Notes: generated from the sequence alone by a model not told the origin. Counted from the stretch's first letter, positions 3,001 through 40,161 are shown. The stretch: 64,000 nt of DNA from a virus (IMGVR_UViG_3300029798_000001); one strand, 5' to 3'. A program made the numbers and translations.

Positions 3001-3393
3001 TTAGAATTACATGAACAACTGCCATCAACACCGCCGGCTAATCGCAAAGAGTATTTAGATCAACGCGATAAGTTATTCCGTATGTTGGCAGTTGACACCA
3101 ACCCAGTTAATAAGCAGATTATTAAACAGGCATTAAAAGATTTAGACAATCGATATGGTTCTATAAAAAATCCAGTAAATGAAGAAAATAGCACCAGCAG
3201 TGAAGCTGTTGAAATAGCCCTAATTCGTCGTGTATTAGTAGCACATACTGATTTAATCATGGATTTTGGTCTTGACAAGGTTACACAAGCCATCGAGGAA
3301 GTTGCTTACAATGTTGGTGATGTGGATGAAATCGGCACCAGTGATGTTAGTGGCTGGATCCATCAAGTCAAACAAATACTCGGTGTTGAATGA
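1..3393 (+). CDS. Large modular protein (>=1107 aa, probably 5'-partial); putative head-packaged polyprotein with KOW/SH3-like modules
   Basis: Frame is open from base 1 through the ATG at 70. Recurrent [VILM]-x-E junctions (GVTEA, GVAED, GVAEG, GMAEG, VNEE, LHEQ). Two KOW-like segments (VGDPIVVT..GKTGEI; KVKIVKGPDAGKTGWI). Confidence 0.6.
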   Translation, partial: LDHQVDTTPFAGGTKNNQWGPKNMPGGRFTVQDVDPYDIGVHEAVEPGEEISTNELLYRAAVEYMQHMGREGQPVDYETAVKLAAKHYHIPYRPGMVPELHAKRQELDAKLDAAIRARQAERGARKQRQLARTAPTTPEQEKKMQDYWSKNAPQATRVKAPTRSLEENQQLHVGDPIVVTAPNEFEGKTGEIYDFAPSGKFVIVNLYNHGKHSMHLSDVEYNQYANDQDEKEFWNGDKEVNESNMSELDAMRQDLELMNDRQFKVAYGISKVAFRQKYRALLNPAPQQDVPVEEGWQDFNKVEPYAVCLAGKPVKKFDYYEEARRFHDNWKKKLYREGNKEKADKITLMPIMDEGDDQNGQPRAGLPANFANRIMALDFPQRKIFRDYINSFNKIRQASADLNKMLAGFPKDIIDAYQQLTPEQQQSVSMVLEPGWEEENQLVQKYKNGVVKKQGVTEAGSPAQQAAIAIAMKRAGKKPKQADEGQFSVTDDPSAHIKVLFLKTINGNEYRLVKQGGVYKIYVNRSKKTKQEFPSFDLAKKALQQLLLNAVNTDEAYTPSPAKPFRNPRGFNKQGTGVGNKLAQQTRAELANIQPRKGTPVPAKEFAQGVLKDLKKVNVKEAEGSWIVYDPETKQIKKRFKTHTAGKSYAQTHGLGFASSEYYFDRVKEPVNELDVNTLKSYADKRGAQVAAMKADNPNPQTGSKEWVQQAVPAQQVGLANRKIARKERQQGVAEDWIDDDAAEPLAKYFADLYYGDFSATMKVKLTSHIYQAIQNGELSIEQLKADIDMLEKEKGIKEQGVAEGKGLAKKVKIVKGPDAGKTGWIREVKHGAFKGAPKTYYIDLDDGGQANNLPATALRLVKEQGMAEGYTPDTNYSYTIVGNGDESKAYDSKEEARDAMRKLGAGYKIKRKPRTSARSVKKHFSNRNMELGETHEPQKFIVTINGKATSPLYPDMADKLYIAAKRAQPNARVEKTVAQTTERQKGIDRVKAGYGDEDALELHEQLPSTPPANRKEYLDQRDKLFRMLAVDTNPVNKQIIKQALKDLDNRYGSIKNPVNEENSTSSEAVEIALIRRVLVAHTDLIMDFGLDKVTQAIEEVAYNVGDVDEIGTSDVSGWIHQVKQILGVE

Positions 3394-4031
3394 GATTTGG
3401 TGAATTTAAACGAGCCAGCCAAGAACACCTTGACGAAATTCTAGTTCGTTTATGTGCTATGGTGGTTGACGGTCAGAAGAAAGACCCTGACCATTATGGC
3501 ATGGTTGCTGCTGCGGTATTAGATCCTGATAATAATTGTGTTGCGGCTACTAGTTATAATGAAGATGGCAAGTGGGTGCATGCCGAGAGGGCGGCAATAG
3601 ATGCATATCATAGTCGTGGTGGCCGTATTCCAGCCGGCAGTATTATTATTACAACCTGTAGTCCATGTAGTGAAAAAATGGATGACCGCTACAGTGAAAG
3701 TTGCACAGACTTAATTAATGATACAGGTGTAGACTTAGTCTATGCTGGCTATGAAGATCCCACCCAACATGCAGAGCAGGCCAAGTTCAAGGTTGAAGTG
3801 TCCGACAATCCAAAGATACACGAACTATGCCATGTATTTGCATCAACCTTTATGGACAAAGAAGCGGCACAGTTAGATGAACTCAGCTTCTTAGGATCGC
3901 CATGCACCAAAGACTGTTCGGGTCATCGTGCTGGCTATGCCTGGAGCCAAAGCAAAGGTGGGCGTGTTGCCCAAAGTCCTTTTAGTCCTAGTTTCAATAA
4001 TGGTAGCCAACTTCAAGTGGATGGTAAGTAG
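3390..4031 (+). CDS. Zn-dependent cytidine/deoxycytidylate-type deaminase with an N-terminal capsid-targeting-like peptide
   Basis: HAERAAI and TTCSPC...C motifs; ATGA overlap with the upstream gene; N-terminus MRFGEF...LDE. Confidence 0.7.
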   Translation: MRFGEFKRASQEHLDEILVRLCAMVVDGQKKDPDHYGMVAAAVLDPDNNCVAATSYNEDGKWVHAERAAIDAYHSRGGRIPAGSIIITTCSPCSEKMDDRYSESCTDLINDTGVDLVYAGYEDPTQHAEQAKFKVEVSDNPKIHELCHVFASTFMDKEAAQLDELSFLGSPCTKDCSGHRAGYAWSQSKGGRVAQSPFSPSFNNGSQLQVDGK

Positions 4032-4241: not shown

Positions 4242-4266
4242 AGTAAGACTTACTTAGGAGATTTAT

Positions 4267-4527
4267 ATGTCAGACCGTATTTTTACAGCAGAAGAGACCA
4301 AAAAACTTAATCAAATCATAAATGAGGGAATTCAAGTCACAATGGAAATCGAAACTCTTCAAGGTGGATTAACTGATACCGTAAAAGCAATTTCGGAAGA
4401 ACTCAACATTAAACCATCTATCCTCAAAAAAGCAATCCGCCTGGCACATAAATCAGAATTTGGCCGTGAGCAGGATGATCACAGTTTGCTCGAGCAAATA
4501 CTTACACAAGTAGGTAAGACACTATAA
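4267..4527 (+). CDS. Small DNA-binding protein (T4 DsbA/GapR-like)
   Basis: 86 aa, helical; pattern E.IETLQ..L.D.VKA..EEL.IKPSILKKAIRLAHK; position next to the polymerase. Confidence 0.5.
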   Translation: MSDRIFTAEETKKLNQIINEGIQVTMEIETLQGGLTDTVKAISEELNIKPSILKKAIRLAHKSEFGREQDDHSLLEQILTQVGKTL

Positions 4528-4605: not shown

Positions 4606-6756
4606 ATGAGTTTTGTAGATGCACTTTTTGATCGTGAACACGATCGTATCCATGTAGTTGAGCGCCGAGACGGTGAGCGGGTATACAAAGAATACCCTGC
4701 AAATTTTGTATTCTATTATGAAGACCCTCGTGGCAAGTTTCAAAGTATATTTGGCACACCGGTAAGTCGTTTTAGCTCACGTAACAATAAAGAATTCCGC
4801 AAAGAACTTAGGATACAATCAGGCAAGAAATTATTTGAATCTGATATCAATCCTGTATTTCGGTGCCTTGAAGAAAACTACAAAGGGCAAGACGGTCCAA
4901 AACTTAATGTAGCGTTCTTTGACATTGAGGTGGACTTTGATCCTGAGCGCGGATTTAGCCGCCCAGAGGATCCATTTAATGCTATCACTGCCATTTCAGT
5001 TTACCTACAGTGGTTAGAGCAAATGGTCACCTTGGTAATTCCACCTAAGCATATGAGCAAAGAAACAGCTCAAGAAATTGCCAACGAGTTTGAAAACACA
5101 ATCATATTCACTGAAGAAGGAGAACTGTTAAAAACATTCCTAGACTTAATCGAAGATGCAGATGCATTGTCGGGTTGGAACTCAGAAGGATTTGATATAC
5201 CGTACACTGTCAACCGTGTAACTCGTATACTAAGTAAAGATGATACCCGCAGGTTTTGCTTATGGAATCAATATCCCAAGAAGCGTACATTTGAACGCTT
5301 TGGTGCAGAAAACGAAACTTACGATTTGATTGGTCGTGTACATATGGATTATATGCAATTGTATCGAAAATATACATATGAAGAACGCCATAGTTACAGT
5401 TTAGATGCCATTGCTGAATATGAACTACAAGAAACTAAAACAGTGTTCGAAGGCACACTGGATCAATTATACAATCAAAACTTTAAAACATTTATTGAGT
5501 ATAATCGACAAGATACAATGATTCTTGCCAAGTTAGATAAGAAACTAAAATTTTTAGATCTAGCCAACACCTTGGCACATGAAAATACTGTGCTATTGCA
5601 AACTACTATGGGTGCCGTGGCTGTGACAGAACAGGCCATTATCAATGAGGCACACGAGCGTAGTATGGTTGTTCCTAATCGTAAGGAACGCTATTCGGAT
5701 GAAGATACACAAGCGGCCGGTGCCTATGTTGCTTATCCACGCAAGGGTATACATGAGTATGTAGGATCAATTGATATTAACTCACTATATCCAAGTGCTA
5801 TTCGTGCGCTTAATATGGGTCCAGAAACTATTGTGGGGCAACTCCGTCCTACAATGACCGATCGTTATATTGCCGATAAGATGCGTAGTGGAAGTAGTTT
5901 TGCCGCAGCGTGGGAAGGCCTGTTTGGATCATTAGAATATGAAGCTGTAATGGCCAGTGAGCGCGGCACAGAGATTACAGTAGATTGGCAAGGTGGTGAA
6001 GATTCTGTACACAGTGCGGCAGAAGTTTGGAAGATGATTTTTGATTCTAACCAACCATGGATGCTTAGTGCCAACGGTACAATCTTTACCTATGAAAAAG
6101 AAGCAATTATTCCGGGATTGTTAAAACGCTGGTACGCCGAGCGGAAAGAAATGCAGTCCAAACTTAAAGAATGTAAAAATGCAGAAGACGAAGAATATTG
6201 GGATAAACGACAACTCGTTAAAAAGATTAACCTTAACAGTCTCTATGGTGCTATCCTTAACCCTGGTTGCCGCTTTTTTGATAAGCGCATTGGACAATCT
6301 ACCACACTAACCGGTCGTGCTATCGCCAAGCACATGGACGCCTATGTAAATGAATGTATCACTGGCAAGTATGACCATGTAGGCGAATCAATTATTTACG
6401 GTGACAGTGTAACCGGCAATACTCTTATTAAGACTGATTCTGGAGAAATAGCTATTGAAGAATTATTTAGACAGACTCCTGAACATTGTATTATTGGTGA
6501 CAAGGAATATGCTACTGGAGCATTGGCCAAAGTTGTGGGATTTAATGCGTATGAAGATTCTCCTATAATGAGCAATATATCGTACGTAATGCGACACAAA
6601 ACAAAAAAGAAACTGTACAAAATTACGCTAGAAAATAATAAGTCAGTCACTGTAACCGAAGATCATAGTATAATGGTAGATCGTGACGGATTCCTAATGG
6701 AAGTAAAACCCAATGACATCTTGGGTAAAGATTTAATTATCAGTCTGAATACATAA
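4606..6756 (+). CDS. polB: Family B DNA polymerase, N-terminal part (3'-5' exonuclease + palm) fused to split intein IntN
   Basis: ExoI FDIEV, ExoII GWNSEGFD, ExoIII YNRQD; region II SIDINSLYPS; region III KKINLNSLYG; ends YGD then SVTG (intein). Confidence 0.95.
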   Translation: MSFVDALFDREHDRIHVVERRDGERVYKEYPANFVFYYEDPRGKFQSIFGTPVSRFSSRNNKEFRKELRIQSGKKLFESDINPVFRCLEENYKGQDGPKLNVAFFDIEVDFDPERGFSRPEDPFNAITAISVYLQWLEQMVTLVIPPKHMSKETAQEIANEFENTIIFTEEGELLKTFLDLIEDADALSGWNSEGFDIPYTVNRVTRILSKDDTRRFCLWNQYPKKRTFERFGAENETYDLIGRVHMDYMQLYRKYTYEERHSYSLDAIAEYELQETKTVFEGTLDQLYNQNFKTFIEYNRQDTMILAKLDKKLKFLDLANTLAHENTVLLQTTMGAVAVTEQAIINEAHERSMVVPNRKERYSDEDTQAAGAYVAYPRKGIHEYVGSIDINSLYPSAIRALNMGPETIVGQLRPTMTDRYIADKMRSGSSFAAAWEGLFGSLEYEAVMASERGTEITVDWQGGEDSVHSAAEVWKMIFDSNQPWMLSANGTIFTYEKEAIIPGLLKRWYAERKEMQSKLKECKNAEDEEYWDKRQLVKKINLNSLYGAILNPGCRFFDKRIGQSTTLTGRAIAKHMDAYVNECITGKYDHVGESIIYGDSVTGNTLIKTDSGEIAIEELFRQTPEHCIIGDKEYATGALAKVVGFNAYEDSPIMSNISYVMRHKTKKKLYKITLENNKSVTVTEDHSIMVDRDGFLMEVKPNDILGKDLIISLNT
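6406..6756 (+). mobile_element. Split intein, N-fragment (116 aa, Ser1)
   Basis: Block A SVTGNTLI directly after YGD; block B VTVTEDHS; ends at a TAA stop. Confidence 0.9.
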
Positions 6757-6760
6757 ATAC
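6751..6760 (+). promoter_or_regulatory. T4-like late promoter for the endonuclease, overlapping the IntN stop codon
   Basis: ACATAAATAC; the TAA at 6754-6756 is part of ATAAATA; AGGAG RBS follows. Confidence 0.55.
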
Positions 6761-6783
6761 TATGAAGATAGGAGTATCATCAT

Positions 6784-7743
6784 ATGCCAACATGTTTAGA
6801 GTGCGGGTATTCAGCCCCAAGATTACAGTGGACACACTTCAAATACAAATGTACCGGAAAATTCAAAAACGGTAATGAGTATATGTCCGCACACCCCGGT
6901 AGTGAGATAATAGATCCAGAATTAAAGAAAAAATACGGGTTTACACTTGACTCGGCTGTCAAAAAGTATGGTGCTGTGGAAGGTCAAAAACGATGGAATG
7001 AGTATTGTGATGCGCAGGCAACCACTAATACTTTTGAATACAAACATGAAAAATACGGTTGGACCCGTGAACAGTTTGACGAGTACAATTCATCAAGAGC
7101 AGTAACCATTGCAAACATGATCAAACGACATGGTGAAGAAATTGGAGTTGCTAAATGGCAAGAATATTGCGAACGACAAGGATATACCAATACCAAAGAA
7201 TATTTTATTGAAAAGTACGGTGCAATCATTGGCGTTAAAAAATATATTGAGGTTAACAAGAAAAAGAAAAACCCACACGACCCGGTGAGTATTTCTGAAA
7301 AATTAGGAATTACCTTGGACGAGGCGGTAGACATTATCTTGTCGAGAGAAAATTCTGGAAGAAGATATATTAGTAATCTTGAAGAAGAATTTACAAACAT
7401 GCTTGAAGATAAAGTAGGACCACTTGACTATACCTCAGCTAAACGACCATTTGGCAAATGGTCTCATTTATTGAATACCTATGTTGTATATGATATAAAA
7501 CACGGCAATTGCATTATTGAATTCAATGGTGATTACTGGCATGCTAATCCCAACATTTATGCTGGCACCGCTACAATAAGAGGTGTCCCGGCGGTTGATA
7601 TATGGCGCCAGAATGTGTTAAAATTACAAACAGCACAGGATTTGGAATTCAAAACCCTAGTGGTTTGGGAAACAGAATTTCGAAATGATAAAGTTGGAAC
7701 AATTAATAAGGTAGCAGAATGGATATTACAAGAACAACCGTAA
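6784..7743 (+). mobile_element. Free-standing Vsr-like (PD-(D/E)xK) homing endonuclease between the split polymerase halves
   Basis: C-terminal YDIK..IIEFNGDYWHANP...VVWE; N-terminal CxxC..H..C; internal repeats K[YH]G...G..[KR]W.EYC..Q..TNT.EY..EKYG. Confidence 0.8.
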
Positions 7744-8702
7744 AAAGTATTGATTGTCTCGGTGAGGTGGATGACTATGTGTATGATCTCAGTATAGAAG
7801 ATCAAGATCCTTATTTTTTTGCCAATGACATATTGGTGCATAATACCGACTCGTGTTATTTCACTGCATACCCTGTGTTGCAAAAAGAAATCGAAGCTGG
7901 TACAATGTCTTGGTCGAAAGAAATTGCGGTACAATTATATAACTCTATTGCCGACCAAGTTAATGATAGCTTTCCAGGATTTATGGAACAAGCATTTCAT
8001 GTACCTAGAGAAATGGGCGAAGTGATCAAAGGTGGGCGAGAGATTGTCGCAAGTAAAGGGCTGTTTATTACCAAGAAGCGGTATGCTGTATTGTATTATG
8101 ATAAAGAAAATAAGCGTGTAGATACCCACGGTAGTCCTGGTAAAGTAAAAGCCATGGGCCTTGATTTAAAAAGATCAGATACTCCCAAGGTTATTCAAGA
8201 ATTTTTAAGCGAGATTCTCGACGAGGTACTCACAGGCTCCACCAGAGATCAGGTTATTGAAAAGATCCGCGAATTTAAGTATATTTTTAAAGAGAGGCCG
8301 GGTTGGGAGAAGGGTAGTCCTAAGCGTGTAAACAACTTAACCAAATATGGTAAGGAAGAAGAAAGATTAGGCAAAGCCAATATGCCAGGACATGTCCGTG
8401 CTGCACTTAATTGGAATAATCTTCGCAGGATGAATGGCGACAAATATAGTTTACAGATTGTTGATGGCATGAAAACAATTGTATGTAAACTAAAATCTAA
8501 TCCACTTGGCTGGACTAGCATTGGTTACCCTACTGACGAAACACATTTGCCACAATGGTTTAAAGAGTTGCCGTTTGATGACACCGAAATGGAAGCCACT
8601 GTAGTTGATCAAAAGCTAGACAATTTATTAAGTGTATTAGAATGGGACTTGGCCAGTGCTACTAACACTAAAAATATTTTTCAAACATTGTTCGAGTGGT
8701 AA
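7719..8702 (+). CDS. polB: Split intein IntC (42 aa) fused to the DNA polymerase B C-terminal part
   Basis: YVYDLSIE (block F); ILVHN then TDSCYF (block G, Thr+1) restores YGDTDS; TKKRYA and KAMGLDLKRSD motifs. Confidence 0.93.
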   Translation: MDITRTTVKSIDCLGEVDDYVYDLSIEDQDPYFFANDILVHNTDSCYFTAYPVLQKEIEAGTMSWSKEIAVQLYNSIADQVNDSFPGFMEQAFHVPREMGEVIKGGREIVASKGLFITKKRYAVLYYDKENKRVDTHGSPGKVKAMGLDLKRSDTPKVIQEFLSEILDEVLTGSTRDQVIEKIREFKYIFKERPGWEKGSPKRVNNLTKYGKEEERLGKANMPGHVRAALNWNNLRRMNGDKYSLQIVDGMKTIVCKLKSNPLGWTSIGYPTDETHLPQWFKELPFDDTEMEATVVDQKLDNLLSVLEWDLASATNTKNIFQTLFEW

Positions 8703-8703
8703 T

Positions 8704-9636
8704 ATGAAACTTAGCAACCTTATTAATTATCGTAATCAGTTAAATGCGTTATCGGCGACATCGGTATTGGAAACAGCCAATGTTGAGCTTGATAAAGTAT
8801 TACATCTTGTTGACACCGAACCTGAGTTGATGAGTTTAGTTACCCATGATCTTGATCAACAATATGCAACTATACAACAGGCATTCATTAATTTTGAAAC
8901 AGACCTTAATAATTTAAAAACCCAACTACAAGTAAAAATTGAAGAGGCAGAACGGCCATGGATCCAAGAAGGGTATAATATGTACGACAAAGGAGAAGTA
9001 GATTATGTTAATACTATCCTTACTACCCGCAAAGATAATTCAGTAGATTCAACTCCGTTCCGTGCAAAACTGAATCAATATGCTAACTGGAAATATCCAG
9101 CAATGATCATTCGACCCGGCCTAGAAACATTTATTGAAGATATGGTAGCCTACGATCCTCTTTACATTGTAGATCTATCCTATGATTTTTTACGACCTGC
9201 CATGGATCGATTTAATAAACAATACCAAAATCGACTGAGACTGTATGTTGTTAAAGAAGATCTTGACGCTGGAATATTAAATAAATTACCCAACGAACAA
9301 TTTGGTATCTGTCTTGCTTACAATTATTTTAATTTTAGACCATTAGAAATAATTAAAAAATATTTAGAAGAAATATATCAAAAACTTAAACCAGGTGGTA
9401 TTTTTGTGTTTACCTTTAATGACTGTGATCGTCGTAGTGCAGTTGAATTAGTTGAAAACCATTATTGTTGTTATACTCCAGGACATATTATTCGAGAATT
9501 AATTTCAACTGTAGGTTACGAAATTACCTATTCCTGGAACGACGACGGTCCGAGCACCTGGATTGAAATACGAAAACCCGGTGAGCTGGATTCGTTAAAA
9601 GGTGGGCAAACCCTAGCAAAAATATTACCAAAGTAG
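8704..9636 (+). CDS. Coiled-coil N-terminus plus class I SAM-dependent methyltransferase-like domain
   Basis: LAYNYFNF...LKPGGIFVFTF motif; start reassigned to ATG 8704. Confidence 0.55.
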   Translation: MKLSNLINYRNQLNALSATSVLETANVELDKVLHLVDTEPELMSLVTHDLDQQYATIQQAFINFETDLNNLKTQLQVKIEEAERPWIQEGYNMYDKGEVDYVNTILTTRKDNSVDSTPFRAKLNQYANWKYPAMIIRPGLETFIEDMVAYDPLYIVDLSYDFLRPAMDRFNKQYQNRLRLYVVKEDLDAGILNKLPNEQFGICLAYNYFNFRPLEIIKKYLEEIYQKLKPGGIFVFTFNDCDRRSAVELVENHYCCYTPGHIIRELISTVGYEITYSWNDDGPSTWIEIRKPGELDSLKGGQTLAKILPK

Positions 9637-12337: not shown

Positions 12338-13402
12338 TTGAACCGCAAAAACTTTTGTGCTGCTCCGTGGGCTGGACTTAGCTTAGATCCAGATGGTCAA
12401 GCTAAACTTTGTTGTATTAGTCAAGATCGAGTTCCATTGCAGGAGTTTGGTCATGCAAAATCTTTGTCTAAGTTTGTAGAAATTCGGCAGGCGTTTATTA
12501 ACGACCAACAACACACAAATTGTAGTGCTTGCTGGCAACGCGAAGAAGTTAATACTAATTGGGAAAGTCGTCGTAGCATTTATCAACATGATGATTTTCA
12601 TCATAATCTCAATTCGGCCACAGATTTTCAACTTGAACATTTAGATTTGCGCTGGAGCAATACTTGTAATCTTAATTGTGTGTATTGCAGTTCAACTTTC
12701 AGTAGTCGATGGGCTGAATTACAAGGAAAAAAACAAAGTTTTAAAATATCCCCCACAGTGACAGATTTGGATTTGGCCAATCTTAAAATATTACAACTGG
12801 CAGGTGGTGAGCCTTTGTTGATTAAAGAAAATCTAGGTATATTGGAACGTTTAAATAAAGTAAATCCTAATGTTAGTATCGAAGTCACAACCAATCTGAC
12901 CATGATCAACAATAATCGTATCTATGATAATTTAAAGCAGTTTGATAATGTGACTTGGATAGTCAGTTTTGAATCAACTGAGAAACGGTTTGAATACATT
13001 AGAAATGGTGCTAGGTGGGATGACTTTTATAATAATTTAAATAAGTTGGCCATGGATTTTATGGACATACAAGTAACTATGGTTTATTTTCCACTAAGTG
13101 GGTTAGGCATTACTAATGCAATACAAGTGGCGTTGGAATTTACTTCTCCGGATAATGTGTTTTTGGTCAGTCAATCTGGAGGACACGGATTTGACAATCT
13201 AAGTCGCTCTGCGTTACAATACATAAAACAACATAATTTAGACCAACTAATACAGTTACCCGATATTTTACAGACACGTTTACAAGATCAAATATTATCT
13301 GCTACAACGCAACAGACCGAAACACTATTACCGTTGTATGATAAATTTGATCAGCTTATTAACCAAAATCACCGTTTACTTTTCTCGGAGTTATATGAAT
13401 AG
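12338..13402 (+). CDS. Radical SAM protein with an N-terminal SPASM/twitch-type Cys cluster
   Basis: CNLNCVYC (CxxxCxxC) and GGEPLL; N-terminal CAAPW..CC..C..CW; TTG start. Confidence 0.85.
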   Translation: MNRKNFCAAPWAGLSLDPDGQAKLCCISQDRVPLQEFGHAKSLSKFVEIRQAFINDQQHTNCSACWQREEVNTNWESRRSIYQHDDFHHNLNSATDFQLEHLDLRWSNTCNLNCVYCSSTFSSRWAELQGKKQSFKISPTVTDLDLANLKILQLAGGEPLLIKENLGILERLNKVNPNVSIEVTTNLTMINNNRIYDNLKQFDNVTWIVSFESTEKRFEYIRNGARWDDFYNNLNKLAMDFMDIQVTMVYFPLSGLGITNAIQVALEFTSPDNVFLVSQSGGHGFDNLSRSALQYIKQHNLDQLIQLPDILQTRLQDQILSATTQQTETLLPLYDKFDQLINQNHRLLFSELYE

Positions 13403-30767: not shown

Positions 30768-32012
30768 ATGAAACGATGCAAGGTGGGGTTTGTAGGAATT
30801 GGAAAATTAGGGCTCGATTGTGCCGAAGTATTTGCTGAAAAACACGAAGTTCGCGGTTACGATATATATCCACGCACTAGTGACACTGTAACAGTATGTA
30901 GTATCGAGGAAGTAGTCAACGAAAGCGAATGGATTTTTATCGCTGTTCCTACTCCGCATGCTGAAGGCTACGATGGATCTGTTCCGTCAAGTCACATGAC
31001 TCCAAAAGACTTTGGGCATGATGCTGTTATTGATTCTATTAATAATATAAACAAGTATGCTACAACTCCTAAAAAAGTTGTATTGATTAGTACAGTATTA
31101 CCAGGCACTACTCGCAAGAAGTTTGTACCACTACTAGATCCCAAACATCAGTTTGTTTACAATCCGTATTTGATTGCCATGGGGTCGGTTAAGTGGGATA
31201 TGGTTAATCCTGAAATGATTATGTTGGGCACAGAGGATGGTAGTTTAACTGGGGTTGCTGGTGAACTCAAAGAACTGTATGAAACCATCATGCAAAATAA
31301 CCCACGCTACGAAGTTGGCACATGGGACGAGTGTGAAGCTATTAAGATTTTCTACAACACATTTATTAGTGCCAAGGTTGGCCTAGTTAATATGGTACAA
31401 GACTTTGCTATGAAGATTGGTAATATCAATGTTGATGTGGTTACAGATGCCTTGGCTAAAAGTACAATGCGTATCATGGGGCCCAAGTATATGACAGCGG
31501 GCATGGGTGATGCTGGCGCTTGTCATCCTCGTGATAACATTGCCCTGCGTTGGTTAGCTGAAGAATACGACATCGGCTATGACTTGTTTGACACAGTCAT
31601 GCATGCCAGAGAAATACAGGCAAGAAACTTAGCTGAATTTTTAGTTATACAAGCTACCAAATCCAATTTGCCTATTGTAATTCACGGTAAAGCCTATAAA
31701 CCAGATGTTGAATATTGTATTGGTAGTTACAGTACTCTTGTTGGGTTCTATGTTAAAGAATGTGGATTTGCTGTAAGTTATGTTGATCCGCTTGCTGACA
31801 ATCAAGATGAGGTAGTTGCCACAGTAGATACCCCGGCAGTATTTTTATGGGCACATAATCGTAAGATCACTTACGAGTATACTGGCGACCAATTAGATAC
31901 CCAACCATATTGTCCAATTTTGCCAGGATCGATTATTGTTGATCCATGGCGCAAATTACCCATTGACATGCCGGGTATTAATGTAGTACACTATGGTAAT
32001 ACACGACAATAG
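30768..32012 (+). CDS. ugd: UDP-glucose/GDP-mannose dehydrogenase
   Basis: GIGKLG, IAVPTP, STVLPG, NPY, K...N.F, GACHPRD. Confidence 0.88.
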   Translation: MKRCKVGFVGIGKLGLDCAEVFAEKHEVRGYDIYPRTSDTVTVCSIEEVVNESEWIFIAVPTPHAEGYDGSVPSSHMTPKDFGHDAVIDSINNINKYATTPKKVVLISTVLPGTTRKKFVPLLDPKHQFVYNPYLIAMGSVKWDMVNPEMIMLGTEDGSLTGVAGELKELYETIMQNNPRYEVGTWDECEAIKIFYNTFISAKVGLVNMVQDFAMKIGNINVDVVTDALAKSTMRIMGPKYMTAGMGDAGACHPRDNIALRWLAEEYDIGYDLFDTVMHAREIQARNLAEFLVIQATKSNLPIVIHGKAYKPDVEYCIGSYSTLVGFYVKECGFAVSYVDPLADNQDEVVATVDTPAVFLWAHNRKITYEYTGDQLDTQPYCPILPGSIIVDPWRKLPIDMPGINVVHYGNTRQ

Positions 32013-38446: not shown

Positions 38447-38785
38447 ATGAAATTAATCACAGCAGTAATCAAGCCCTTTAAACTAGACGAAGTTCGAGAA
38501 GGTCTAGCCGAGGTTGGCATCACTGGGTTAACTGTAACAGAAGTCAAAGGCGTTGGGCGGCAAAAAGGCCATACCGAGTTGTATCGCGGTGCTGAGTATG
38601 TAGTAGATTTTTTACCCAAGGTTAAAGTCGAAGCAATCGTTGAGGAGGGCTTAGTTGATCGTGCTATTGAGGCCATTATCAAATCTTCCAAGACCGGTAA
38701 AATTGGTGACGGTAAGATTTGGGTTACCGCAATTGAAGGCCTGGTTCGTATTCGTACAGGTGAATCTGGAAAGGATGCAGTATAA
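38447..38785 (+). CDS. glnK: Nitrogen regulatory protein PII (GlnK)
   Basis: MKLITAVIKPFKLDEV, GRQKGHTELYRGAEY, GKIGDGKI. Confidence 0.97.
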   Translation: MKLITAVIKPFKLDEVREGLAEVGITGLTVTEVKGVGRQKGHTELYRGAEYVVDFLPKVKVEAIVEEGLVDRAIEAIIKSSKTGKIGDGKIWVTAIEGLVRIRTGESGKDAV

Positions 38786-40161
38786 TGAAAAAATTACTAA
38801 CAGCATTAGCATTGTTCGCAGTATCGGCAGTGGCATTGGCCGCAGATGCTCCGGTGCCTAACCCGGGTAATACCGCTTGGGTATTGACTAGTACAATCTT
38901 AGTAACACTCATGGCTATTCCAGGCCTTGCATTGTTCTATGGTGGACTAGTTCGTAGTAAAAATATGTTGAGTGTGCTCATGCAGACCTTTGTAGTATTT
39001 GCTCTCATGGGTGTTCTTTGGACGGTGTTTGGTTACACACTAGCATTTACAGCAGGTACACCATTTATTGGTAGTATTGACAAGTTGTTCTTGTTGGGTA
39101 TTACTCCGGACTCTGTAGCGGCAACATTTAGTAAAGGTGTTGTTATTCCTGAGTTTAGTTTTGTAGCCTTTCAACTTACCTTTGCCGCAATCACTCCGGC
39201 ACTGATTATTGGTGCGTTTGCCGAGCGTGTTAAGTTTGGCGCCTTGTTGGCATTTATTACCATTTGGTTTATCTTTGCTTACTTGCCCATGGCACACATG
39301 GTTTGGTATTGGGACGGCCCTGATGCTATTACCAGTGCCGCCACATTAGAAGCAGTCACTAATTCAGCAGGCTGGTTGTGGGCCAAGGGTGCTTTAGACT
39401 TTGCCGGAGGTACAGTAGTTCATATCAATGCTGGTATTGCTGGCTTGGTTGGTGCTATCATGTTAGGCCGTCGTGTTGGTCTTGGTAAAGAAAATATGAG
39501 TCCACACTCATTGACACTTACTATGGTTGGTGCCGCATTGTTGTGGGTAGGTTGGTTTGGCTTCAACGCTGGATCTAATCTCGAAGCCACAGGTGTTGCT
39601 GCTCTTGCAGTTGTAAACACAATGGTTGCCACAGCAATGGCTGTATTAAGTTGGTCTGGAGTTGAGAAGTTGTTCAAAGGTAAAGCAAGTATGTTAGGGG
39701 CCGCATCTGGTGCTGTAGCAGGCTTGGTTGCGATTACTCCTGCTGCTGGTTTTGTAGGACCGATTGGTGCGTTAGTAATTGGGTTGGTTGTTAGTCCGAT
39801 TTGTTTTTTCTTTGTTGACAAAGTTAAACGCACATTTGGGTACGATGACGCACTTGATGTATTTGGTATTCACGGTGTAGGTGGTATTGTTGGTGCTATC
39901 CTCACTGGAGTGTTTGTTGCTCCATACCTAGGTGGTACTGGTGTATACGACTATGTGGCCAACAAGGTAGCAGACTTCGATATGGTGGCTCAACTTACAG
40001 CTCAATTATGGGCAGTGGGTACAGCCGTAGTGTTAAGCGGTGTAGTATCCGTAGTAGCATTCAAGTTAATTGACCTAGTCATTGGCCTGCGTGTTCCAGA
40101 AGAAGATGAACGAGAAGGGTTGGACATCACTTCACACGGTGAAACAGCGTATCACAATTAA
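38785..40161 (+). CDS. amtB: Ammonium transporter
   Basis: FYGGLVR, AHMVW, DFAGGTVVH, GWFGFNAGS, DDALDVFGIHG; twin His retained. Confidence 0.97.
   Translation: MKKLLTALALFAVSAVALAADAPVPNPGNTAWVLTSTILVTLMAIPGLALFYGGLVRSKNMLSVLMQTFVVFALMGVLWTVFGYTLAFTAGTPFIGSIDKLFLLGITPDSVAATFSKGVVIPEFSFVAFQLTFAAITPALIIGAFAERVKFGALLAFITIWFIFAYLPMAHMVWYWDGPDAITSAATLEAVTNSAGWLWAKGALDFAGGTVVHINAGIAGLVGAIMLGRRVGLGKENMSPHSLTLTMVGAALLWVGWFGFNAGSNLEATGVAALAVVNTMVATAMAVLSWSGVEKLFKGKASMLGAASGAVAGLVAITPAAGFVGPIGALVIGLVVSPICFFFVDKVKRTFGYDDALDVFGIHGVGGIVGAILTGVFVAPYLGGTGVYDYVANKVADFDMVAQLTAQLWAVGTAVVLSGVVSVVAFKLIDLVIGLRVPEEDEREGLDITSHGETAYHN

Follow-up and report, generated by a model that had tools for sequence, protein, structure and literature searches.

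Fractured genes are loci at which a split intein divides a host protein between two genes on one strand, so that the N-terminal part of the protein carries the N-terminal intein half (IntN), the remainder is preceded by the C-terminal half (IntC), and a free-standing homing endonuclease gene (HEG) lies between them. The hosts given by Dassa 2009 are gp41, NrdA/J, IMPDH and DnaE, to which terminase and DNA ligase are added as new ones for inteins; in the accessible part of that report family-B DNA polymerase (PolB) appears only as prior work (PMC2677866). A fractured PolB with a Vsr-type HEG is nevertheless already known in phages. The present study concerns such a locus in a 64,000-nt stretch of viral DNA (IMGVR_UViG_3300029798_000001; the whole stretch is called the window, and all coordinates are counted along its + strand), which has that layout at the polymerase position known as pol-c. 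A first-pass annotation, made from the sequence, had traced the fractured layout to gp41, NrdJ, IMPDH and DnaE; these are indeed known cases but not the only ones, phage PolB having already been annotated and characterised. From its sequence, the element is very probably a mobile cassette of split intein and HEG in the replicative PolB of an uncultured freshwater jumbo phage, the polymerase being rebuilt by protein trans-splicing.

A close known relative is the PolB1 intein of Aes123, one of the T4-like phages of Aeromonas salmonicida (PDB 9HTH; CL and CLm derive from it), which has the same three-gene arrangement of PolB and Vsr-type HEG and for which trans-splicing was shown biochemically (PMC11923092); splicing in the window is a prediction. 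The PolB16 intein is also a proven trans-splicer (PMC10189870), and the Mootz laboratory characterised Aes123 PolB1, CP21 PolB1, LCGC14 PolB2 and GOM-OPS-1 PolB2. The published set of cysteine-independent split inteins is stated to have Ser at the +1 position, and several published members of the cysteine-less type themselves required the removal of one or two cysteines. The labels 'intein-containing split DNA polymerase precursor' and 'VSR endonuclease' are already attached to genes of Aes123, Aes508, AS-gz and Tenacibaculum phage PTm1, and Imam et al. 2019 described a split PolB intein in MIJ3/PA5oct (PMC6892783).

Inteins at pol-c itself are known from other sources. The Mimivirus PolB intein lies at YGD/TDS (the slash marks the insertion point), with Ser1, Asn and Thr+1, and the split intein of N. 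equitans occupies the equal position (III) (PMC549080). The latter is cysteine-less and naturally split, comes from a hyperthermophile and needs 50-70 C; the two genes for its halves are at different loci, and there is no intervening HEG (Dassa 2009, PMC2677866). Archaeal and Mimivirus pol-c inteins are contiguous and contain LAGLIDADG domains, whereas the window's intein is split, and its sequence is only weakly similar to NEQ528 (E 0.09) and to the archaeal PolB intein PI-PkoII (E 9.5e-4). The first-pass annotation had suggested that IntN may resemble the start of the contiguous Mimivirus PolB intein. The layout in the window, with host N-part and IntN, free HEG, and IntC and host C-part on one strand at one locus, is that of a fractured gene, and its arrangement is identical to that in Dassa 2009, down to a HEG whose 3' end overlaps IntC and which a possible hairpin precedes (PMC2677866).

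Junctions of the insert in the polymerase gene

The N gene (4606-6756) encodes 716 residues, of which residue 601 is Ser, and the C gene (7719-8702) encodes 327 in a frame different from that of the HEG, whose 3' end it overlaps by 25 nt. Pfam matches to DNA_pol_B_exo1 (2.8e-20) and DNA_pol_B (2.3e-28) identify the N-extein as polymerase, and the C-extein matches the DNA polymerase families phrog_262 and phrog_1918 at about 1e-48. IntN, HEG and IntC form a cassette of 1,439 bp between the YGD and TDS codons, at 6406-7844, which is exactly the span from Ser1 of IntN to the Asn of IntC. The first-pass annotation had given these bounds and had read the two genes as PolB up to YGD followed by a 116-aa IntN and a stop, and as a 42-aa IntC (YDLS...VHN) followed by TDSCYF; both readings agree exactly with the sequence, and the same bounds emerge from alleles with an empty site.

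A scan of IMG/VR returned 80 close relatives, among which the polymerase gene is uninterrupted in 66; the insert is present in nine loci, seven of them spanning it whole. In all 66 empty alleles the N-extein match runs to residue 600 and stops one base before the C-extein match, in frame, and every allele reads IIYGD/TDS(C/V)YF. The N-extein is 83-97% identical to uninterrupted IMG/VR alleles, and the C-extein is collinear with them from residue 601 on. The empty sites therefore show that the insert starts precisely with the first codon of the intein and stops with its last, which is the expectation for an intein and not for a group I intron, and they fix the junctions at YGD/TDS. This is the pol-c site, with Ser1, Asn and Thr+1, as the first-pass annotation had stated and in keeping with Ogata 2005 (PMC549080). 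Where occupied and empty alleles differ at silent positions of the homing site, they do so in no clear pattern.

The exactness of the junctions bears on two further explanations of the interrupted gene. In the first, the halves would be joined at the RNA level, by a group I or group II intron or by RNA trans-splicing, and the intein-like motifs would be incidental. Vsr-like HEGs do also inhabit group I introns (I-Bth0305I), but no Rfam family, hence no group I intron, matched in 6000-8300 at E<=1, the insert begins and ends in frame with intein codons, and the pieces of the insert on both flanks are under purifying selection at the protein level; we give this explanation almost no credence. 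In the second, a contiguous intein containing its HEG would have been broken by assembly or sequencing errors. Nothing was found that favours this explanation. The spacer holds two further in-frame stops after the TAA of IntN, IntC lies in another frame, and the same layout is found in independent contigs, in 20 sequencing runs and in the genomes of cultured phages (KP13-7, Aes123, PTm1, PA5oct), so that an artefact is practically out of the question.

Intein halves and the persistence of the split

The two halves contain the features of a class-1 intein: Ser1, TxxH, the block-F Asp, His-Asn and a Thr+1 nucleophile. In this class of HINT-domain intein the split typically falls at the point of endonuclease insertion. 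IntN (SVTGN...TEDH...SLNT) opens with block A as SVTG, including Ser1, and has an Arg-His NX motif (VMRHKTKKK) and block B as TEDH; IntC (MDITR...YDLS...ILVHN) has block F as VYDLSIED and block G as ILVHN. The His after Arg/Lys in the NX motif, a motif of Ser1 inteins defined by Hoffmann et al. 2023 (PMC10189870), groups the element with the Ser1 oxyester, or 'cysteine-independent', inteins. Across nine relatives Ser1, Arg-His (R68 and H69 in alignment numbering) and TEDH are invariant in IntN, as are H41, N42, T43 (the Thr+1) and the block-F D23 of IntC in 20 aligned sequences. All 41 split C-halves open with a 42-aa IntC and read HN/TDS. There is one internal cysteine in each half and none at the splice junctions, the count given by the first-pass annotation. 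With Cys33 in IntN and Cys13 in IntC, the intein does not belong to the cysteine-less type of Aes123/CL, PolB16 and LCGC14; Cys33 is Ser in most relatives, and Cys13 (xCLGE) is invariant in the 41 cluster representatives, the split halves of the clade. At the position of Cys13, Aes123, CP21 and PTm1 have Asp, Ser or Cys.

Together the halves cover one HINT domain: of the 155 positions of Pfam Intein_splicing, IntN covers 11-93 (34.3 bits) and IntC 117-155 (25.9 bits). The best solved relatives are the Aes123 PolB1 intein (PDB 9HTH) for IntN, with an E-value of 8.7e-14, and the PolB16 intein (8CPO) for IntC, with 1.3e-5. Prediction of the IntN/IntC complex from our own alignments gave an intertwined model with a score of 0.78, the best control reaching 0.00; 58 of 80 solved complexes attained this mark, as did 2 of 110 mismatched pairs. 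Each partner had a predicted local distance difference test score (pLDDT) of 76 or more, and at least 94% of contacts were common to the runs. Because split-intein complexes have already been solved, the prediction demonstrates likeness to them and not binding by this pair; on the model, IntN and IntC are expected to associate.

Some observations weigh against the splicing cassette and temper confidence in it. The Pfam matches both lie under the gathering score of 35.8 when taken individually, although this is to be expected because each is a match to half a domain. The complex prediction may pass through memory of solved split inteins. The chemistry of penultimate His/Asn and Thr+1 is slower in some characterised Ser1 inteins, and efficiency is unpredictable. 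No RNA run was among the sequencing runs that contain the element, and the joints at the locus in the compared contigs, being short-sided or from diverged contigs, could not be interpreted.

The split is also maintained. All seven complete intein-bearing loci have a stop after an IntN of 116-117 aa and a separate start for IntC (ATG, or probably GTG), and the relative frames of the halves vary among them. Split C-halves of 327-330 aa make up 41 of the best 120 cluster representatives of the C gene at 90% identity. Two loci have lost the HEG in whole or in part: L008 has only a 48-nt spacer (4252-4299) separating the stop of IntN from the ATG of IntC, yet remains split, and L039 has a 66-aa open reading frame (ORF; 3206-3409) in which the HEG start is fused to its last ~58 residues, the E..D..H nuclease motif having gone. 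IntN and IntC are intact and conserved in both, despite the decay of the HEG. Between lineages the rate of synonymous substitution (dS) is saturated and that of nonsynonymous substitution (dN) is 0.04-0.22; where it could be computed, dN/dS was 0.03-0.10 for IntN and 0.03-0.13 for IntC, and IntN, IntC and HEG overall lay at 0.03-0.13. Both intein halves and the HEG are thus under strong purifying selection. The exteins are equally conserved in intein-bearing and empty alleles.

These data speak to the suggestion that the locus is a decaying, inactive remnant, with the polymerase broken and another polymerase replicating the phage. Decay of the HEG does occur in the population (L039 and L008), but the intein halves are spared in those same loci, the substitution ratios are low, conservation of the exteins is the same whether or not the intein is present, and the arrangement recurs in contigs of at least ten studies from 2012 to 2023. 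We consider a remnant very improbable. It is also unlikely that the halves hold the polymerase fragments together non-covalently, without splicing. A tight complex as predicted for IntN and IntC would suffice for this, and non-splicing fractured phage genes are documented, namely the HEG-fractured NrdA of phage Aeh1 and gp43A/B of some T4-like phages (cited in PMC2677866). However, residues needed only for chemistry (Ser1, the TEDH His, the NX His, His-Asn and Thr+1) are invariant while synonymous sites are saturated, an unspliced domain of 158 aa would separate the two metal-binding aspartates of YGDTDS, and the homologous Aes123 intein does splice.

A splicing intein at this locus would act as follows. 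The polymerase would be translated as two polypeptides, probably from one transcript; the 116-aa IntN and the 42-aa IntC would associate into a HINT fold; and class-1 oxyester splicing would begin with an N-O shift at Ser1, pass to Thr+1 by transesterification, and end with cyclisation of Asn and an O-N shift, rebuilding YGDTDS (motif C) and freeing the intein. The naturally split Ser1/Thr+1 intein proposed by the first-pass annotation is supported by the empty sites, the maintained split, dN/dS, the invariant residues, the complex prediction and the lack of an Rfam match. A single transcript for the polymerase halves is probable because there is no separate promoter or terminator signal, a scan for promoters and terminators having given no excess over shuffled sequences. 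A possible 9-bp hairpin (6761-6784; -10.7 kcal/mol, z -0.97) has the Shine-Dalgarno sequence in its loop and reaches the HEG start codon; its stem is kept in an alignment fold of seven loci, with one compensatory pair and some pairs broken, which points weakly to a structure before the HEG.

The endonuclease gene and the movement of the cassette

The HEG matches phrog_22677 (2.2e-62) and has 583 homologues at E<=1e-5; it has no Pfam family, and a PDB sequence search with it returned nothing meaningful. Its AlphaFold model (pLDDT 85) contains an N-terminal CxxC and helical-repeat domain, a putative DNA-binding region. Foldseek E-values were weak (0.07), and with VIA-align residues 194-319 were superposed on E. 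coli Vsr (1cw0_A: Z 11.9, root mean square deviation 2.7, 112 aa) and on the catalytic domain of I-Bth0305I (3r3p_A: Z 11.1, root mean square deviation 3.5, 96/97 aa). On these models the C-terminal domain is predicted to be a Vsr-fold nuclease. D237, E246, Y251-W252-H253 and E296 are invariant, and D250 nearly so. The Vsr-like/EDxHD family of homing endonucleases, which is characterised by composite catalytic residues E, D, H and D and by an aromatic-Trp-His stretch, was first described in fractured genes (PMC2677866, PMC3239194); its prototype, I-Bth0305I, cuts immediately beside its own insertion site (PMC3239194).

The cassette has a history separate from that of the polymerase that contains it. 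In comparison with L007, the nucleotide identity of the window is 87.0% over the N-extein, with mismatches up to 6402, and 99.7% over the cassette (4 of 1,439 positions differ); the first 110 nt of the C-extein are identical (100%) and the remainder is 80.9% identical. Against L006 the corresponding values are 86.7% for the N-extein and 99.2% for the cassette, with the C-extein at 76% from 9 nt past the cassette and its remainder at 80.9%. The exteins of L006 and L007 are no closer to those of the window than are those of an empty allele, L010 (86.3% and 82.9%). Identity thus breaks within 4-9 nt of the cassette ends, and contigs from four studies (one of 12.5 kb) likewise differ from the window at few positions within 6406-7844 but densely on either side of it. 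Protein identities are discordant in the same way, and in either direction: the exteins of L008 are 93% and 90% identical to those of the window and its intein halves 71% and 74%, whereas in L039 the exteins are 73% and 71% and the intein halves 81% and 93% identical. The nucleotide mosaic and these discordant protein identities show, therefore, that the cassette moves whole between phage lineages.

The sharp breaks in identity are of the kind left by recent homing: recombination starts at or beside the insertion point, and co-conversion is short and variable. In relatives that co-infect, the HEG would cleave alleles lacking the intein close to the insertion point, and repair would copy the whole cassette in. 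By analogy, the position of the breakpoints is consistent with cutting of the I-Bth0305I type, and cleavage by the HEG of the window is predicted on that basis.

The stretch or the cassette was found in freshwater and lake metagenomes and in one labelled marine, within the span of studies given above. In the marine-labelled run (X16, 2023) the cassette is on a 12.5-kb contig with a word depth of ~190 (5400-8700), far above the compared freshwater runs. In the freshwater population every stage of homing is present together: some sites are empty, others contain the intact cassette, one has a HEG with an internal deletion, and one has a split intein that lacks the HEG and can no longer be lost. 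The natural record that it gives of a fractured-gene cassette that homes, loses its endonuclease and yet stays split is unusually clear. Such a series has rarely been documented for a fractured gene, and the recombination breakpoints are here located to a few bases.

Relation to other polymerase inteins, and neighbouring genes

The window shares with Aes123 its Ser1, NX His, TxxH and terminal HN, and the sizes of the halves are alike (IntN ~116-120 aa, IntC 39-42 aa), with 34% identity between the IntN sequences and 38-39% between the HEG and the 'putative VSR endonuclease' of Aeromonas phages. The Aes123 intein differs in being inserted two codons downstream (YIDTD/S), with Ser and not Thr at +1, in being fully Cys-free where the window's has one Cys per half, and in belonging to a polymerase that is additionally split into gp43A/B. 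At the sequence level, insertion at DTD/S with Ser+1 is common to Aes123, PA5oct, CP21, PTm1 and VPALA. The window thus has not the Aes123 allele (after DTD, Ser+1) but the pol-c one (YGD/TDS, Ser1/Thr+1).

The closest polymerases of cultured phages, at ~50% identity, are those of the Pseudomonas jumbo phages MIJ3/PA5oct and of Salicola phage SCTP-2, with IntN 41-42% identical. MIJ3/PA5oct differ in the insertion point (YGDTD/S, with Ser+1), in a 560-aa HEG annotated as 'Hef-like' or HNH, and in an N-terminal extension before IntC. SCTP-2 has a mini-intein at the window's exact site, YGD/TDS, but this is contiguous, contains no HEG and ends in Lys-Asn. The same site, nucleophiles and layout occur together in Klebsiella jumbo phage KP13-7 / phiKp_21 (OP617745, LC768491), which reads VIYGD/S...HN/TDSVYF, with Ser1/Thr+1 and a Vsr-like HEG of 326 aa between the halves; its sequence is distant (IntN 34%, HEG 33%) and its genes are annotated 'hypothetical protein', with no intein label. 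The IntC genes of KP13-7 (L087:7053-8267) and PA5oct (L001:7085-8224) are annotated with N-terminal extensions of ~80 and ~55 residues respectively, which are either real appendages or mis-called starts. A tree built from 12 inteins, in which KP13-7 and SCTP-2 lay on long branches and six of the nine inner branches were left open, did not decide whether the Thr+1 (YGD/TDS) inteins group apart from the Ser+1 (DTD/S) ones. It supports neither a single shift of site nor independent invasions.

A different, intein-less kind of split was seen in Agrobacterium phage Atu_ph07 (L086:4001-6970), where PolB is annotated as two adjacent genes ~19 nt apart, divided well upstream of motif C, with no intein or HEG between them.

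What the locus adds to the known systems is moderate: mesophilic split inteins with Ser1 and Thr+1 that form a large natural family and whose activity is predicted from sequence. Among the characterised ambient-temperature, cysteine-independent split inteins that could be checked in the literature, only Ser+1 was found. It is a tentative suggestion that a mesophilic Ser1/Thr+1 intein that is split by nature may be available for the first time in this clade, possibly orthogonal to tools derived from Aes123, PolB16 and LCGC14, in which case the homology with the DTD/S inteins would reflect a cassette shifted within motif C. If Thr+1 is accepted in its native D/TDS context, the choice of junctions for protein engineering would widen, with possible orthogonality, and dozens of natural variants are at hand, some without the IntN cysteine.

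The coordinates of the locus are collected in Table 1. The locus had no megablast match among 50,697 phage records.

Table 1. Features of the fractured PolB locus in the window.
Feature	Position	Strand	Basis or remarks
PolB N-extein, 600 aa, ends IIYGD (first Asp of motif C)	4606-6405	+	exonuclease, palm/fingers
IntN, 116 aa, then TAA at 6754-6756	6406-6756	+	Ser1 codon at 6406
Spacer, 27 nt, GGAG Shine-Dalgarno at 6771-6774	6757-6783	+	sequence
Free-standing HEG, 319 aa	6784-7743	+	phrog_22677, predicted Vsr fold
IntC, 42 aa, own ATG at 7719, ends ILVHN	7719-7844	+	Pfam Intein_splicing
PolB C-extein, 285 aa plus stop, starts at Thr+1 (TDSCYF, second Asp of motif C)	7845-8702	+	

Throughout the window the phage genes are arrayed on one strand. 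An ORF of 326 aa at 8656-9636 (+), which as listed overlaps the last 47 nt of the PolB C gene, has a weak class-I methyltransferase domain (Methyltransf_11, 1.3e-4). Further along are a radical SAM protein at 12338-13402 (+; 3.5e-12) and a protein of the UDP-glucose/GDP-mannose dehydrogenase family at 30768-32012 (+; 4.7e-15). A 458-aa ORF at 38785-40161 (+) encodes a full-length ammonium transporter (Pfam Ammonium_transp, 9.3e-112, profile positions 1-399 of 399), a candidate auxiliary metabolic gene.

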